Shown: positions 14,096-61,556 of the stretch, one piece after another
How positions within the stretch are numbered: the stretch's first letter is position 1
Layout: each line of letters begins with the position of its first letter
Source of the DNA: Eledone cirrhosa
Taxonomy: Eukaryota
Direction of reading: 5' to 3'
Assembly: GCA_964016885.1 (NCBI GenBank)
Contig: OZ024741.1
Span: 376,774,001 to 376,838,000 of the forward strand
Length of the DNA: 64,000 nt
Notes under the pieces: model-generated
Told to the model about the DNA's origin: nothing
The model's input: the letters and a program-made list of their open reading frames with translations, nothing else
Databases searched by the model: none
Program-made: the position numbers and the translations under genes

Positions 14096-14118
14096 ACGCA
14101 TATATATATATCTATAAA

Positions 14119-15030
14119 AGTTAAAGGGTATATACATATAAACTAGACAAGGCCATAGAAATATATATATATATGTTTTTGGCAACCGTTCAAGGTGTGC
14201 CTCAATGACGAATTTAATTAAATAATTAATAATCAGAGCAATATATGAAAAGTAAGTCCATAGAATCATTAGATAAAATATATACAGTATTTCTTCTCCC
14301 AATCAGCATAAATTAACCACACAAAAAATCATTTAAACGAGGCTATAGGTTTAAAATATCCCTATGAAGAAATAGTAGATAAATGATACAGCTCCTTATC
14401 CGCGATTCACAGCTATAGAAAATTTACCGATTATTTCTGATAGCCTGTAGAAATTGACTGGACATATAGTTAACTACACATAATTAGTTGCAAAATCAAA
14501 GTTAGAAGAAAAAATGCACATAAACATACCCAACTCATCAATACATCTCTACTACCGGCAGTTTCATTCCATTTTGGGTATATCCGATCTTGGATAAATC
14601 AACGAGGTTGGAAATCATCTGGAGATAAACTCAATTGGACAAAGATTTTTCTTACATGATCCCCGCCAGAAGCGAATTCAAAATGGCTACGAATCGTCAC
14701 ATGGCTAATGGTCAAGTCCGAAAGTCTGTGATTGGTGCCTGTCGGCGAGTAGGCTGCTTGCTAGAAAGCGCAGCCGAATACTGCCTAAAGTTTTACTCAA
14801 TCTTACGGGAGTATATACAATTTAAAGGGTATATACATATAAACTAGACAAGGCCATAGCAATATATATATATGTGTTTTTGGCAACCATTCACAGTGGT
14901 GCTCAATGACGAATTAATTAAATAATTAATAATCAGAGCAATATATAAAGAGTAAATCCATAGAATCATTAGATAAAATATATACAGTATTTCTTCTCCC
15001 AATCAGCATATATTAACGACACAAAAAATC

Positions 15031-15032
<2 letters not shown>
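14119..15032 (-). mobile_element. Non-coding ~702-bp tandem unit (about 1.3 copies) carrying a hammerhead
   Basis: 14119-14332 recurs at 14821-15032; HHR at 14545-14626. Confidence 0.7.
14545..14626 (-). ncRNA. Type I hammerhead with long domain II; U4A substitution in this copy
   Basis: ATCTC-CAGATGA-T-TTCCA...TGGAA-T-GAAA-CTGCCGGTAG-TA/GAGAT. Confidence 0.7.
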
Positions 15033-15078
<46 letters not shown>

Positions 15079-15152
15079 TACATTATGAAGAGAGAAGAAA
15101 CATTTAGACATAATTAGTAATAAAATGTATCATACCTAAACTGTTCCTAAAT

Positions 15153-15240
15153 TCCTCGACTACGTAGTTTCGTGGCATAAACAAAAACAATATATCAAAG
15201 ATATAGAGTCCTTGCGAGGTCTGCCGACTTATCAAGAGGA
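15153..15240 (-). ncRNA. Type I hammerhead, U3-A8 core, branched domain II; best-paired copy
   Basis: TCCTC-TTGATAA-GT(C)GGCA...TGCCAC-GAAA-CTACGTAG-TC/GAGGA. Confidence 0.85.
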
Positions 15241-15862
15241 TACCTCATTTTACTAGTCTCAAGAACGCGTCCACACGACGTGAGAAAGAATCCCAAAAGG
15301 CGGAGGGGGAGATAGTCACGCGATATAACGGTCGAAAAACAGAGCTAAGCCTCTTATAACAACGAAGAAAATACCACGGAGGCGGAGGGGGTATTCATAT
15401 CGAGGCCGCAGAAGAGGTAGTGAAGAAGGCGAGAAGTATGAGTAATGGAAGCTTTCCAGTTGTCCCCACACCTCAAAGATTGCTCGACCAGAGGGAGTTA
15501 TTAATATATTTAGAAACACACAGATACGTGCAGTTGGGTGCGGATGCATTCATGTATATATGTGTGTGTCCGCATGTATCTGTGTGTTTCTAAATATATT
15601 AATAACTCCCTCTGGTCGAGCAATCTTTGAGGTGTGGGGACAACTGGAAAGCTTCCATTACTCATACTTCTCGCCTTCTTCACTACCTCTTCTGCGGCCT
15701 CGATATGAATACCCCCTCCGCCTCCGTGGTATTTTCTTCGTTGTTATAAGAGGCTTAGCTCTGTTTTTCGACCGTTATATCGCGTGACTATCTCCCCCTC
15801 CGCCTTTTGGGATTCTTTCTCACGTCGTGTGGACGCGTTCTTGAGACTAGTAAAATGAGGTA

Positions 15863-15950
15863 TCCCCTTGATAAGTCGGCAGACCTCGCAAGGACTCTAT
15901 ATCTTTGATATATTGTTTTTGTTTATGCCACGAAACTACGTAGTCGAGGA
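15863..15950 (+). ncRNA. Hammerhead of 591-bp unit 1; predicted cleavage after 15945
   Basis: As 15153-15240, with one C.A mismatch in stem I (TCCCC/GAGGA). Confidence 0.8.
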
Positions 15951-16453
15951 ATTTAGGAACAGTTTAGGTATGATACATTTTATTACTAATTATATCTAAA
16001 TGTTTCTTCTCTCTTCATAATGTATTTTTAACTCTGATACTGGTTCAGTCTAGTTCAAACTGAATTGGTCTGTCCCAGTCATTCATTGAGCAACATCGGT
16101 GAAGTTGGCACCCTTAACTCACAGTTGGGTGCGGATGCATTCATGTATATATGTGTGTGTCCGCATGTATCTGTGTGTTTCTAAATATATTAATAACTCC
16201 CTCTGGTCGAGCAATCTTTGAGGTGTGGGGACAACTGGAAAGCTTCCATTACTCATACTTCTCGCCTTCTTCACTACCTCTTCTGCGGCCTCGATATGAA
16301 TACCCCCTCCGCCTCCGTGGTATTTTCTTCGTTGTTATAAGAGGCTTAGCTCTGTTTTTCGACCGTTATATCGCGTGACTATCTCCCCCTCCGCCTTTTG
16401 GGATTCTTTCTCACGGTGTGTGGACGCGTTCTTGAGACTAGTAAAATGAGGTA

Positions 16454-16541
16454 TCCCCTTGATAAGTCGGCAGACCTCGCAAGGACTCTATATCTTTGAT
16501 ATATTGTTTTTGTTTATGCCACGAAACTACGTAGTCGAGGA
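16454..16541 (+). ncRNA. Hammerhead of 591-bp unit 2
   Basis: Same sequence as 15863-15950. Confidence 0.8.
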
Positions 16542-16772
16542 ATTTAGGAACAGTTTAGGTATGATACATTTTATTACTAATTATATCTAAATGTTTCTTC
16601 TCTCTTCATAATGTATTTTTAACTCTGATAATGGTTCAGTCTAGTTCAAACTGAATTGGTCTGTCCCAGTCATTCATTGAGCAACATCGGTGAAGTTGGC
16701 ACCCTTAACTCACAGTTGGGTGCGGATGCATTCATGTATATATGTGTGTGTCCGCATGTATCTGTGTGTTTC

Positions 16773-16805
<33 letters not shown>

Positions 16806-16806
<1 letters not shown>

Positions 16807-18733
16807 TGGTTACACAACAGTTAGTTCACCATACCGAGAACAATTATTTCACCTTAGCGGATCCTCAGCTCGTAATGGGCATGGTTATACCGAACAGGAG
16901 GGATTACCGTACGAACCTGCATGCGCAGAAACCCGTCACTTCACATAGGCAATACTAAAATACGCGCGAGAGGTGTAAGGGAGATAACTGCGAAAGTTCG
17001 AAAAGTGTTTAGTTGATAAGAAAAAATATTTATGTTGTTACAATAATTCACTCAATCCGTAGCCTTGTAGTTATACAATAGGTGTTTCGAGACGTGTGGA
17101 CAACGTGTTAAAAATTCATTTCTCGTGTTTAGCCAATCACTATTGCATAATCTCTTGAGAATATTTATTCGTTCGTCAATATACAGTCCACACGACAGAT
17201 TTCCACTTGCGTATGGTTTGGACTTAGTGATAGCTTTCCATTGAATGGAGTAGTCTATACTTGATTCCTTGAGCCACCACACGTGGCTCGCGAGTGTCGT
17301 GGATGAACGTCTGTCCGGGTACCTAAAGGGCGACTGATGGTTCAGGAAACGTTCCTTAAATCGGCCCTCCGCCATTCACATATGGGATTTGATTTCCTGT
17401 GGTTGGTTTGGTCGGTTGGTCGTGACCACAGCTTCATAAGTTACAGCTGGTGTGTTGCATTGCTGTTGAAGGGCGAAAGCTTCGGGCTTACGGCAAGAGC
17501 ACCATGGTGGGGTGTTTCTCCTAGTGCTGCTAGTGATGTGGGCCTTCATGTTCTTAGCGCAGGAGTATCCTAGTTTTGCTTTGTGTCGGTTAACGATGGA
17601 GCGGTATTTATGTCCTATGGGAAAGTGTCTATCTAAGAGGGCTAGAAATCTTTTGTCTACATTGGTTTTAACGTTGAGTGAGAAAGGAGGAGAGAACCAG
17701 ATAATTTGTCTATTGTTGCGCTTACTTTTCTTATTGCTGTTGTTGATAGTGGGAGAGTAAGTGATAGGTTGTGAGAAGCCGCTGTTAGCTAACGCGTGTT
17801 ATAGTAGGGTGCCGCCCTGTCAAAGATAGCCTTATTAGAGGCACTTTCTCATAGGTTATAAATACCGCTCCATATTTAACCGACACAAAGTTAAACTAGG
17901 ATACTCCTGCGCTAAGAATTGAAGGCGCACATCACCAGCAGCCCTAGGAGCAACACCCCACCAGGGTGCTCTTGCCTTAAGCCCGAAGCTTGCCCCCTTC
18001 AACAGCAATGCAACACAACAGCTGTAATTTATGAAGCTGTGGTAACTTCCAACCGTCCAAACCAACCACAGGAGGTCAAATACTATGTGAGAATGGCTGA
18101 GGGCCGATTTAAGGAACGTTTCCAGAACCATCAGTCGACCTTTAGGTACCCGGACAGACGTTCATCCACAAAACTCGCGAGCCTCGTATGGTCCCTCAAG
18201 GACTTAAGTATACACTACTCCATTCAATGGAAAGCCATCACTAAGTCCAAGCCATACGTAAGGGGAAATCCGTCGTGTTGACTACGTATTCACGAACAAA
18301 TAAATATTCTAAAGAGATTATGCAATAGTGATTGCCTAAACACGAGAAATGAATTTTTAACACGTTGTCCACACGTCCCGAAACACCTATTGCATAACTA
18401 CAAGGCTCCGGATTGAATGAATTATTGCAGCAACATCAATATTTTTTCTTATCACTAAAAACTTTTGGGACTTTCGCAGTTTTCTCCCTTACACCTCTCG
18501 CACGCATTTTAGTATTGCCTGTTTGAATTGACGGGTTTCTGCGCATGCGCGTTCGAACGGTTGTCCTTCCTGTTCCGTATAACCATGCCCATTATGAGGT
18601 AATAATCCGCTAACCTGAAGCAATTGTTCGCGGTTTGGCGAAATAACTGTTGTGTAACCATTTCTACCTAACTCGTCCCATGGACTGAGTGCTCTACCAC
18701 TACGGATATTACCTTCTAGTGTTCTACCACTAC
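16806..18733. mobile_element. Inverted pair of 5'-truncated Hydra-like PLE 3' halves (minus ~16806-17850; plus ~17855-18733)
   Basis: Both arms encode 'CSCxKPEA..L..CNT.AV.YEA..Y..MAEGRFKERF.NHQS.F..LAS.VW.LK..LNTRNEFLTRCPH'; the minus arm also has 'IIWFSPPFS'. Confidence 0.9.
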
Positions 18734-20416: not shown

Positions 20417-22766
20417 AGGAACGAGTAGGACCCCGACGGCTGAGCTCAAGCCGTTTCGACGGTTAATTCTGGACTAAATGAAAATGTTTATCCTGGTATA
20501 TGAATAGCCGAGCTTCTCAGGGGGTAATTCCATATATGGTAAAAGTGATTGTCACAAAGATTGGTCAAAAGTTTGTTGTTGAGACATAATAATTCTATCA
20601 TGGCAATTCGTGGAGGGAAGGGGTAGTAGAAGAAAGAGGGAGAGGGGGTAGAGAAACCCAGTCGTGCGTTGATAGTGGCAAGTACAGCTGGGCAGCAGGT
20701 CAAAGAAGATACTAGGGAGGGGGAGTGGGAGGAAGTCGAAACAATAAGTAAAACAATATGGGGTAAATATATAGAAAAATAGCGAGAGTGTTAAAAAACA
20801 ATTAAATGTAAAAAAAAAAAACAATTTCTGGTTACTATAACCTAAGGACAGCTATCAAGTCTCTCACTGGTACTGCTAGACTAAAGAAACGTTTACTAGG
20901 AGGGGCGGAATTATAATGAGACCCTTTTAAGAGGTATAAGTAATCAACCGAGTATATCTTACGGTGACGGGTCAACAAGTGGGGGGCCAAAATACTAAAG
21001 AAACTACCACGAAATAATAATTCAGAGTCCCGAGTCCAGTACGAAATAAAGGTTTCTACCCCAGGCACAAGGCCAGTAACCACCCAGTGCAAAAAAAAAA
21101 AAGACTAATACGAAATAATAATTCGGAATCCCGAAAAAGAATACTAATACTATCTCTAAGGTTGCAGCCACGATACAAAAATTCTAGTGCAAACTACTTA
21201 AATGCTCGTACGAAGTATATGTAAAATTTGATACGGAAAATTAATTCAGAATCCCCCCCCCCCCCCCCCCAAAAAAAATAATACTGATATACGAGAAATG
21301 AAAGCAAAGATACCACTAAGAAATATAGAAAGCACGGAAAAGGGGCAGCCATCGAATAAGAAGGCAAATATCCGGGGTCTAACACATCTGCTATAAAAAG
21401 CGGAGTCGGCCAAATCTATCATTGAATAGGGGAAGGGGGTTGGGGCACTGAGGCTACAAAGGACCGAGAGGCTTCCTCGGGTGGTCGAGAAAGTGAAAAG
21501 GACGACGCCAAAGAAAGAGGACTGGGGTGGAAGGACTAGGGAGGGTGGGAGGGTAGAAGGAAATATAGAGGAAGCGATAAAAAGATATAAAAGAAGATCT
21601 TACATCTACCATGCAAGCAGGAGTTACCCATTACAAAATCGGCAAGTGGGGTGTTATAGCCCTAGTCTACCCCTCGGGTCATTATGGGGTTTGAGGGCGA
21701 GGTAAGTCCTACGTAATCTGTGTTTACATGCAGTTACCAGTTCATCTTTCTTGTTTAGGAGTTGGTCCGTCGAAAACAGCATTTGTAAAGTTTCCTCCGA
21801 GCATAAATTGCACGGACGGCGTCCTCCCGTGTAAGACTTGGCTCTGGACAGTAAGCTCCAAGTGAGATCATAGGTAATATTGTTATCCTTGAGGTCCCAT
21901 ATGTGGCCCGAAAGTGTAGTGGCGTGACGTCGGGCCGGGTTTCGGAAGGTATGTCTGTGTTGGTATAGCCGGGTCTTGAAGTCACATGCGGTTAATCCTA
22001 TATAAGCTTTGTTGGAGTTGTCCGTCCTCACGTTGCACTGGTAGATCACATTACGATCTCTGCATCTGTTGTCGAGGGGGCAAATGGATCCATCAGGACA
22101 GTTGCACCTCCTGGTCGGCTCTTCACTGCTATTTAGGTTATTTCCTCCATAGGGGTTCAGTTTTTTGTTGTTAGAGGAGACGATGTTTTGTGCAAAGTTT
22201 GGTGTAGTGCTGTAGGAGAGTTTGATGGTATTTTTGTTAATTATGTTGTGGTAGCAGTGTTGTAGGGGGAAGTGTTTTTCAATGAGCCTAAAGAAGATTT
22301 TCCAATAGGAGTGGTCACCTCGGCGTTGTGGGGAGGATTGAAACATGTTAGATTGCGTGAGCGGCGGTGTCGTCTGCTGGTTCGGCTAATGGAAGCTGGA
22401 CAGTACGATATTTCCTCCCGGAAACCACTCCGCTTCAGGGCCTGGTTGTAGTAAGGCGCATGTTCCTTGAATATCTGCTCATTAGCTGACAAACGAGATA
22501 TGCGGAGGGAGATGTTTTTAACAAGGTTATTGGTGATGTCCCTAGGATGGTTTGACCGGCGGTGGATGTAGTGCAGCTTGTCGTTAGGTTTCCTGTATGG
22601 GTAGTACAGATCATTATCGAGGTCAAGTGTAACATCCAGGAAGTTTACTCGGGTCAGTGACGTTTGAAGGGGTCCTACTCATTCCTATTACCCACTCTAT
22701 TACCCTAAGTATTGAGTACTTTGGTGTGTTATGGTCCACCTGGTTCCTTACCTCATTTCCTCCGTT
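20417..22766 (-). mobile_element. 5'-truncated Hydra-like PLE (same family as 61046-64000) with an inverted 5' tail at 22669-22766
   Basis: 'VNFLDVTLDL..YPYRKPN', 'CNCPDGSICPLDNRC..NVIYQC..YIGLTACDFKTRLYQH..CNLCSEE..CKH'; ~1.2-kb 3' UTR ending in an HHR at 20430-20525 (core CTGAGAA). Confidence 0.93.
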
Positions 22767-61049: not shown

Positions 61050-61556
61050 ACAAGTAAGACCCCGACGGCTGAGCTCAAGCCGTTTCGTCGGCTAATTCTG
61101 GACTGAATGAAAATTTATTCTGGTATTTAAATAGCCGAGCTTATCAAGGGGTAATTCCATATATGGTCAAAGAGATAATCACCAAGATTGGTCACATCAC
61201 AGGTTAGTAGTAAATCTGTGATGGCAAATTGGTGGTGGAAGGGGTAGCTAAACCTGCCGGTAGGAGAAAAAGAGGGAGGGGGTGGAGTAGACCCATTCAT
61301 GCGTTGGTAGTGCCGGCTACAACTGGGCGTGAGGTCAAAGAGGATACTGGGGAGGGGGAAGGAAGTCGAAACGGTAAGTAGAACAATGTAGGGTAAAACT
61401 ATAAAAATTACTGAGAGAGAAAAATAAATAAGCAAAGTCTGGTTACTAAGACATAAGTCCCTCGCTATTCCTAGGCTAAAAAAATCCATATATAAATAAA
61501 TAAACAAATAAGTGAATAAAAGAATAGATGAATAAATTAAAAAAAAAAAAAAAAAG

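Follow-up and report, generated by a model that had tools for sequence, protein, structure and literature searches.

The insert at 15081-16780 of the window, by which we mean the whole 64,000-nucleotide stretch of DNA analysed here, is built from a 591-bp non-coding unit that is repeated head-to-tail and belongs to a multi-copy family. We hold with good confidence that this tandem repeat is most likely a non-autonomous Penelope-like element (PLE), that is, a non-LTR retrozyme, which would be copied into (TA)n by the enzyme of a Hydra-type PLE.

Anatomy and coding capacity of the insert

Self-BLAST of the window resolved the insert into a direct run (15531-16780) of two 591-bp units followed by 68 bp in tandem, and an inverted copy of 451 bp (15081-15531). 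The stretch 15531-16190 matches 16122-16781 with 99.5% identity over 660 bp at an offset of 591, the differences between the two units being located at 15825-6 and 16040, while the inverted copy is the reverse complement of 16163-16613 with 98.9% identity. Thus, the arrangement proposed in an earlier sequence-only reading, two near-identical 591-bp units with a partial third and an inverted copy inside (TA)n, was confirmed. The longest period considered by Tandem Repeats Finder is 500, and hence a 591-bp unit lies out of its range. The parts of the insert are as follows:

15033-15080, no strand: (TA)n tract, left flank and target site
15081-15531, minus strand: inverted, truncated copy, 451 bp, corresponding to unit positions 15572-16022
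15531-16121, plus strand: direct unit 1, 591 bp (self-BLAST)
16122-16712, plus strand: direct unit 2, 591 bp (self-BLAST)
16713-16780, plus strand: partial third unit, 68 bp, which stops at the recurrent 3' terminus B (unit position 16190)
16776-16804, no strand: (TA)n tract, right flank; a different PLE starts directly behind it
16018-16025, plus strand: recurrent 3' terminus A of the family, with TA-like overlap
16116-16179, plus strand: long hairpin of the unit

At unit position 16025, a TA-like overlap links the outer end of the inverted copy to (TA)n. The direct copy starts (equivalent to 16122), and the inverted copy has its inner end (equivalent to 16163), within the arms of the long hairpin. 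A partial tandem, an adjacent inverted 5'-truncated copy and a microsatellite target form together the insertion pattern that is described for PLEs in the available part of PMC8557442, which supports the earlier view of the inverted-plus-tandem arrangement as a PLE trait. Two further hairpins had been pointed out in the unit, GCACCC/GGGTGC and TGCGGA/TCCGCA. Both are present, but they overlap (GGGTGC at 16127-32, TGCGGA at 16130-35) and exclude each other; the predicted fold of the unit chooses the TGCGGA/TCCGCA hairpin.

The unit shows no sign of coding capacity. Its 11 ORFs gave no match to Pfam better than an E-value of 0.075, and ten PLE peptides of the window searched against it with tblastn reached at best 0.098. 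A 71-aa ORF on the minus strand, compared with 1.84 billion proteins, found one marginal match (E = 9.8e-4) to a protein without a Pfam family. Moreover, each of the six circular reading frames meets 7-15 stops per round. These searches bear out the statement that the unit holds no RT/EN remnant.

Several other repeats are found in the window. Directly left of the (TA)n tract, a 221-bp direct repeat (14113-14333 and 14814-15033, 93%) surrounds a 480-bp segment. An array at 49.7-53.0 kb has units on a scale of about 0.8 kb, with paired 122-123-bp repeats and microsatellites, and inverted copies of it lie at 40.3 and 45.3 kb. Duplicated LINE 3' fragments (53914-55368 and 56744-58540, minus strand), which we take to be RTE-like by their translated motifs, are placed between very long (TA)n tracts, and a SINE near 44 kb is presumably octopus-SINE-like. 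The host gives the impression of a microsatellite-rich invertebrate.

The family in public sequencing runs

Four of the 24 public runs listed (X1, X4, X5 and X22) were aligned to positions 15650-16240. X1, from organism A, comprises 1381 million letters of contigs, its run type not being on record, and contains 73% of the words of the unit. In this run 1488 contigs match the unit, 509 of them at 99% identity or more, 400 at 95-99%, 266 at 90-95% and 313 below 90%, so that 909 are at least 95% identical. The summed word depth is 1.6-5.9 x 10^5 over 15710-16189, as opposed to 5.6-14.9 for the eight diverged pieces listed. This depth is not itself a copy number, and it suggests thousands to tens of thousands of copies if the run is of genomic DNA. 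All three copies of the window differ from near-fixed letters of X1 at 15742, 15767 and 15831, and X1 is therefore probably not from the individual that gave the window.

The sole joint listed in X1 leads from 16240 to 15650, which is the head-to-tail step back by 591. Loose ends with TA tails were found at 16025 (8 contigs of X1) and at 16190 (8 contigs of X1 and one of X5), and the depth in X1 falls behind both positions, from 453k to 264k and from 366k to 161k, respectively. These positions are also the outer ends of the inverted and direct copies of the window, both with a TA-like overlap with the target. Since the ends of the window's copies recur as TA-tailed ends in X1, 16025 and 16190 are preferred termini of the family, 165 nt apart. 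The 30-40-bp optional tail that would arise from two adjacent initiation sites was not seen between these recurring TA-like termini; in PLEs this tail is reported as frequent and not obligatory (PMC8557442, in the part available). The remaining loose ends among those listed are internal variants in stem II and microsatellite-like matches. Taken together, the head-to-tail joint, the recurring TA-tailed termini and the 1488 contigs indicate a young, ORF-less, multi-copy family. In this respect anatomy and X1 support what had been proposed from the letters, namely that the tandem element is a young retrozyme of the non-LTR kind, non-coding and with a hammerhead.

It could be argued that the unit is merely the terminal repeat (pLTR or 3' end) of an autonomous PLE and that the insert is a set of 5'-truncated ends without a life cycle of its own. 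Terminal repeats of PLEs do bear hammerheads, and PLEs leave truncated ends in tandem and inverted order (PMC8557442 and PMC4209133, as far as their available text goes). Likewise, the accessible part of a recent preprint reports that 24 of 57 Xenopus retrozyme families are homologous to known TEs, almost all of them PLE termini (Li, Clavereau & Pollet 2026, bioRxiv 10.64898/2026.07.22.740005). In X1, 161 contigs match the unit only partly, and a low-copy parent with an ORF is possible. However, the unit closes head-to-tail twice in the window, in X1 and in a closed contig of 621 nt (591+30) in X4, and a constant period of 591 bp, with the end joined to its own start, is not expected of a truncated PLE end. 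Moreover, the share of X1 contigs, which are short, that continue into unlike sequence is 0, and the searches of the unit gave no RT/EN remnant. The case in which the unit would always be attached to an ORF thus found no support in X1, among the loose ends listed, and the dominant form of the family is ORF-less. We therefore consider it unlikely that the unit is no more than a PLE end, and regard a non-autonomous element as the better description.

Words of 31 letters from the unit occur in 20 runs under 17 organism labels and from 16 studies, none of the runs listed with such words being recorded as RNA. One could suppose horizontal spread of the unit, as an RNA circle or element, from one animal species to another. 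The closed 621-nt contig of X4 (organism B), which has no flanks, would fit this idea, and in 4 of the 20 runs the share of words is at most 0.2. On the other hand, that circle has a depth of 7.8, as compared with 29-61 for five of the six other aligned contigs of its run. X5 holds a single contig of 471 nt with a depth of 5.9 and a TA tail of the genomic type, and both X4 and X5 carry the near-fixed alleles of X1. In X22, which consists of raw DNA reads from organism F (1938 million letters), no read covers the body of the unit; the five partial matches concern its microsatellite-like part only, and another run of organism F has 46% of the words. For the traces under the 16 other organism labels, of which three runs were aligned, the simplest reading is cross-contamination from a source with very high copy number. 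Horizontal spread of the family is thus very improbable, and we give no more credit to a 591-nt ribozyme circular RNA that exists also outside its home genome and passes between animal species; if true, such a circle would link genomic retrozymes and viroid-like agents. A scan of metagenome contigs with a 23-base motif gave no locus. Two loci found in metagenome contigs with a gapped motif were rejected as chance matches, having neither stems, repeats nor similarity. A pattern scan of viral contigs yielded no locus.

Predicted hammerhead ribozymes and a predicted 591-nt monomer

Each full unit and the inverted copy contain one type I hammerhead with a U3-A8 core, GAAA, a GUC site and a palindromic stem III (ACTACGTAGT). 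The core TTGATAA is located at 15868-74 and 16459-65 and the GAAA at 15932 and 16523, and GUC cuts are predicted after 15945, 16536 and, on the minus strand, 15158. The partial third unit (68 bp) is without a hammerhead. One U3-A8 hammerhead per unit with these traits, as had been read from the letters, was found in both tandem units, with a mismatch in stem I. The features concerned, including a related hammerhead outside the insert, are:

15153-15240, minus strand: type I hammerhead in which the 5-bp stem I is intact and position 15237 has the family allele T; cut predicted after 15158
15863-15950, plus strand: type I hammerhead 1, core 15868-74, 57-nt stem II, GAAA at 15932, predicted cut after 15945
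16454-16541, plus strand: type I hammerhead 2, with the same stem I change (C16457), predicted cut after 16536
15946-16536, plus strand: predicted 591-nt monomer between two cut sites
61059-61152, minus strand: U3-A8 hammerhead with long stem II, next to (TA)n in the 3' end of a Hydra-type PLE, outside the insert

A strict descriptor of this hammerhead, composed post hoc after the motif had been seen, is passed by none of 5000 dinucleotide shuffles of the unit on either strand. Among the copies of the insert it is passed by the inverted copy alone, the two tandem copies failing at stem I, and a looser descriptor also gives two unrelated matches in the 64-kb window. The core, three stems and UH site of a type I hammerhead are present in the inverted copy and in the family allele, in the U3-A8 variant. 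Rfam gave 0 gathering matches and no hammerhead family among 44 E-value matches. The absence of an Rfam hammerhead match, the non-canonical core, the post hoc origin of the descriptor and the unrelated matches of its loose version could suggest a chance match in an ordinary satellite or SINE-like repeat. Yet the shuffles do not reproduce the motif, the same design recurs at a PLE 3' end in the window and the motif lies on the structured strand; moreover, U3-A8 is a documented PLE variant with about 1300 matches in Schistosoma (PMC4209133, in its available part). We therefore judge a chance origin to be extremely doubtful.

The two tandem copies have a C at 15866 and 16457, and in hammerhead 1 C15866 creates a C-A mismatch in stem I. 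The family allele is T, with 466,721 of the 466,946 counts of summed depth in X1, and the inverted copy has T as well. With T, stem I has five perfect pairs, and for a 100-nt fragment the hammerhead fold is 1.1 kcal/mol less stable than the best one. For the C allele this gap is 7.8 kcal/mol, and in the best fold the RNA shifts register and core bases are paired. The hammerhead is not displayed in the predicted best folds. Even for the T allele, the active stem I forms (p 0.2-0.9) only if the RNA includes no more than 20 nt upstream, and p drops to about 0 from 40 nt onwards. Pairing of the palindromic stem III between two molecules gives -12.9 kcal/mol, as against +1.5 for its hairpin within one molecule. 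According to these models, hammerhead activity in the family would need dimer folding, co-transcriptional folding or help by proteins, and such aids have been reported for PLE hammerheads (PMC4209133 and PMC11167929, available parts). Common variants in the hammerhead core do not occur in X1, which is uninformative since less than one would be expected.

The flank of stem I at 15857-15861 is complementary over 5 bp to 15883-15887 in the internal loop of stem II. This match may represent a pseudoknot between loop I and loop II, of the type treated in the available text of PMC3088659, or a competing helix, and its predicted probability ranges from 0.03 to 0.86 depending on context. Loose ends of X1 at 15904 and 15906 represent a subfamily in which stem II has a longer terminal loop, its hairpin being kept by a G-U pair.

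The plus strand of the monomer is structured (z of -4.2 as a linear and -4.8 as a circular molecule), as opposed to -0.9 and -1.0 for the minus strand. Among 12 family variants placed on the circular fold, the pair is preserved in all five that fall where the pairing p exceeds 0.5, which would occur by chance about once in 30 and is suggestive; the other seven are at poorly defined positions. It had been proposed that read-through transcription would release a 591-nt monomer (15946-16536) from this locus. The span from cut to cut is indeed 591 nt, but the proposed release is weakened by the C allele (7.8 against 1.1 kcal/mol). As both tandem ribozymes carry C and are predicted to misfold, this locus is a poor source of that monomer, and on the basis of the folding models hammerhead cleavage and circle formation are unlikely here. 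For the family as a whole, cleavage followed by circle formation, probably as a dimer through the palindromic stem III, is a serious possibility, which we nevertheless rate as somewhat short of even.

Another view, to which we assign close to an even chance, is that linear tandem transcripts move the family, with an inactive or dispensable hammerhead, tandems formed by unequal crossover or gene conversion and no circular RNA. It is compatible with the element being a non-autonomous PLE. The C at 15866, common to both tandem copies and missing in the inverted copy and in the family, fits duplication or conversion after insertion, and the active fold is disfavoured in long contexts. Furthermore, cleavage was dispensable for a PLE of Anolis (PMC11167929) and eight of nine Xenopus dimers stayed uncleaved (Li et al. 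2026), according to the available parts of these sources. However, the family retains a complete core and a perfect stem I, and related retrozymes of coral, mussel and axolotl form circles in vivo (PMC7229834, available part). Rolling-circle copying of one mutant circle would also give two tandem copies with a shared change.

Relation to PLEs and a possible mechanism of insertion

Outside the insert, the window has a single match to the strict descriptor, located at 61147 on the minus strand in the 3' end of a PLE. This hammerhead has the U3-A8 core of the unit, a GUC site and a near-palindromic stem III. Over the stretch leading from stem I into stem II, it agrees with the unit in 17 of 18 bases, and its stem II is 54 nt long (57 in the unit). 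The PLE copies at 20.4-22.7 and 61.0-63.4 kb show, by eye, CxCx5C, a CxxC before E and a CxH after N, features of the Hydra clade, which inserts in (TA)n (PMC8557442, available part). When their EN region was used in a protein search, two unnamed longer relatives without a clade label were found. Aligned with the 3' region of the Hydra-type PLE, the unit scored 29, while the shuffles had a mean of 24 and a maximum of 32 in 100 (five PLE ends of the window compared). Because this DNA alignment score is within the range of shuffles, the link to a helper is one of shared design, and common descent is only a candidate. Judging from these sequence features, the Hydra-type PLE of the window would be the likeliest kind of helper.

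The hammerheads of the Hydra-type PLE at 20 and 61 kb have a 54-56-nt stem II and a long near-palindromic stem III and lie about 17 nt from (TA)n; the sister at about 20430-20525 (minus strand) is C3-A8. Rfam missed the hammerheads of these copies. Immediately behind the insert, 16805-18733 is a fragment of another PLE with a CxCx5C-type linker. It is flanked by (TA)n, its tract next to the insert being shared with the retrozyme, and has an inverted arrangement of its own (16801-17644 against 17827-18666, 88%). A minimal hammerhead-like motif is seen near 16840-16890 on the minus strand of this fragment.

It is possible to propose a mechanism for the insertion. The plus strand would be transcribed across tandem copies into a structured RNA, and a PLE RT-endonuclease would bind this transcript, nick (TA)n and prime inside the RNA at one of the two TA-like sites. 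A cDNA of more than one unit could then be made from a tandem transcript or from a ligated 591-nt circle, and the inverted copy would result from fold-back or a second priming at the 16116-16179 hairpin. Fold-back is suggested because the two arms of this hairpin are where the direct copy starts and the inverted copy has its inner end. However, a single fold-back of one cDNA is insufficient, because the inverted copy would then also have C15866 in place of its T. The difference implies either a mutation later than the insertion, spread afterwards by duplication or conversion, or the use of two templates. For the PLE of Anolis, the only one studied in vitro, it was found that hammerhead cleavage could be dispensed with, that unprocessed RNA served as the main template and that the initiation sites were non-homologous to the target (PMC11167929, available part), and among Xenopus retrozyme dimers one of nine cleaved in vitro (Li, Clavereau & Pollet 2026, available part).

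The unit has several of the traits that define a retrozyme: at least two consecutive head-to-tail units each with a hammerhead, no coding capacity, dispersed multi-copy occurrence and a self-paired ribozyme strand. With the metazoan non-LTR retrozymes described in the accessible parts of PMC7229834 and Li et al. (2026) it shares non-coding head-to-tail units, one type I hammerhead per unit, a GC content below 45%, a structured monomer, many copies and PLEs in the same genome. It differs from them by the U3-A8 core and 57-nt stem II in place of the canonical core, and by the predicted misfolding of the tandem ribozymes of this locus. The sequence-only reading called the unit oversized, and in this it was wrong: published retrozyme units measure 51-972 bp, with a mean of 650 bp in ray-finned fish, although 591 nt does exceed the size of the invertebrate retrozymes tested for circles (about 170-400 nt, PMC7229834). 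Since Li et al. (2026) report both these sizes and derivation from PLE termini, neither the size nor the PLE link is new.

Hydra-clade PLEs (Craig et al. 2021, PMC8557442) resemble the insert in the (TA)n target, the sense-strand 3' hammerhead and the short palindromic stem III, and Penelope-13_HM of this clade has an inverted 5'-truncated copy as in the insert, but these PLEs have ORFs, which the unit lacks. A CTGA core and a loop 2 of at most 10 nt are found, unlike in the unit, in all 26 Hydra hammerhead rows in the available portion of File S2 of that work; a canonical descriptor would miss U3-A8 and a long stem II or loop 2. The minimal hammerheads of PLEs, among them the U3-A8 variant of Schistosoma Cercyon (Cervera & de la Pena 2014, PMC4209133), share with the unit the U3-A8 covariation, G10.1-C11.1, 5-bp stem I and palindromic stem III suited to dimers. 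In the part of that study available, they are mostly single motifs of truncated PLEs with a helix II of 7-8 bp, whereas the unit is tandem and ORF-less and has a much longer stem II. The non-autonomous Chlamys PLEs such as MRC1 are also ORF-less derivatives with pLTRs and multicopy head-to-tail insertions. As far as the available part of PMC8557442 goes, most Chlamys are without hammerheads, and their non-autonomous forms match the 3' end of autonomous elements, a match which is not significant here.

This kind of element, a retrozyme, is already known from many animals, and a specialist would not be surprised by it. In the literature on octopus hammerhead ribozymes and cephalopod retrozymes, which included the 2026 preprint without its supplements, we found no family of this kind, and the accessible text of a repeat annotation of Octopus vulgaris (PMC13282606) does not mention ribozymes. 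Families with U3-A8 and a stem II of about 55 nt may be undercounted, because Rfam, and probably canonical descriptors too, miss them. The present family could serve as a test case for two questions, namely by which enzyme the retrozymes of animals are mobilised, and whether this enzyme copies a circle or a tandem transcript left uncut. It offers useful handles for both, as it is young and abundant, has two defined 3' termini and occurs with two natural alleles of stem I, one predicted to be active and the other to misfold. The same genome also contains a Hydra-type PLE with a matching unusual hammerhead as candidate helper.
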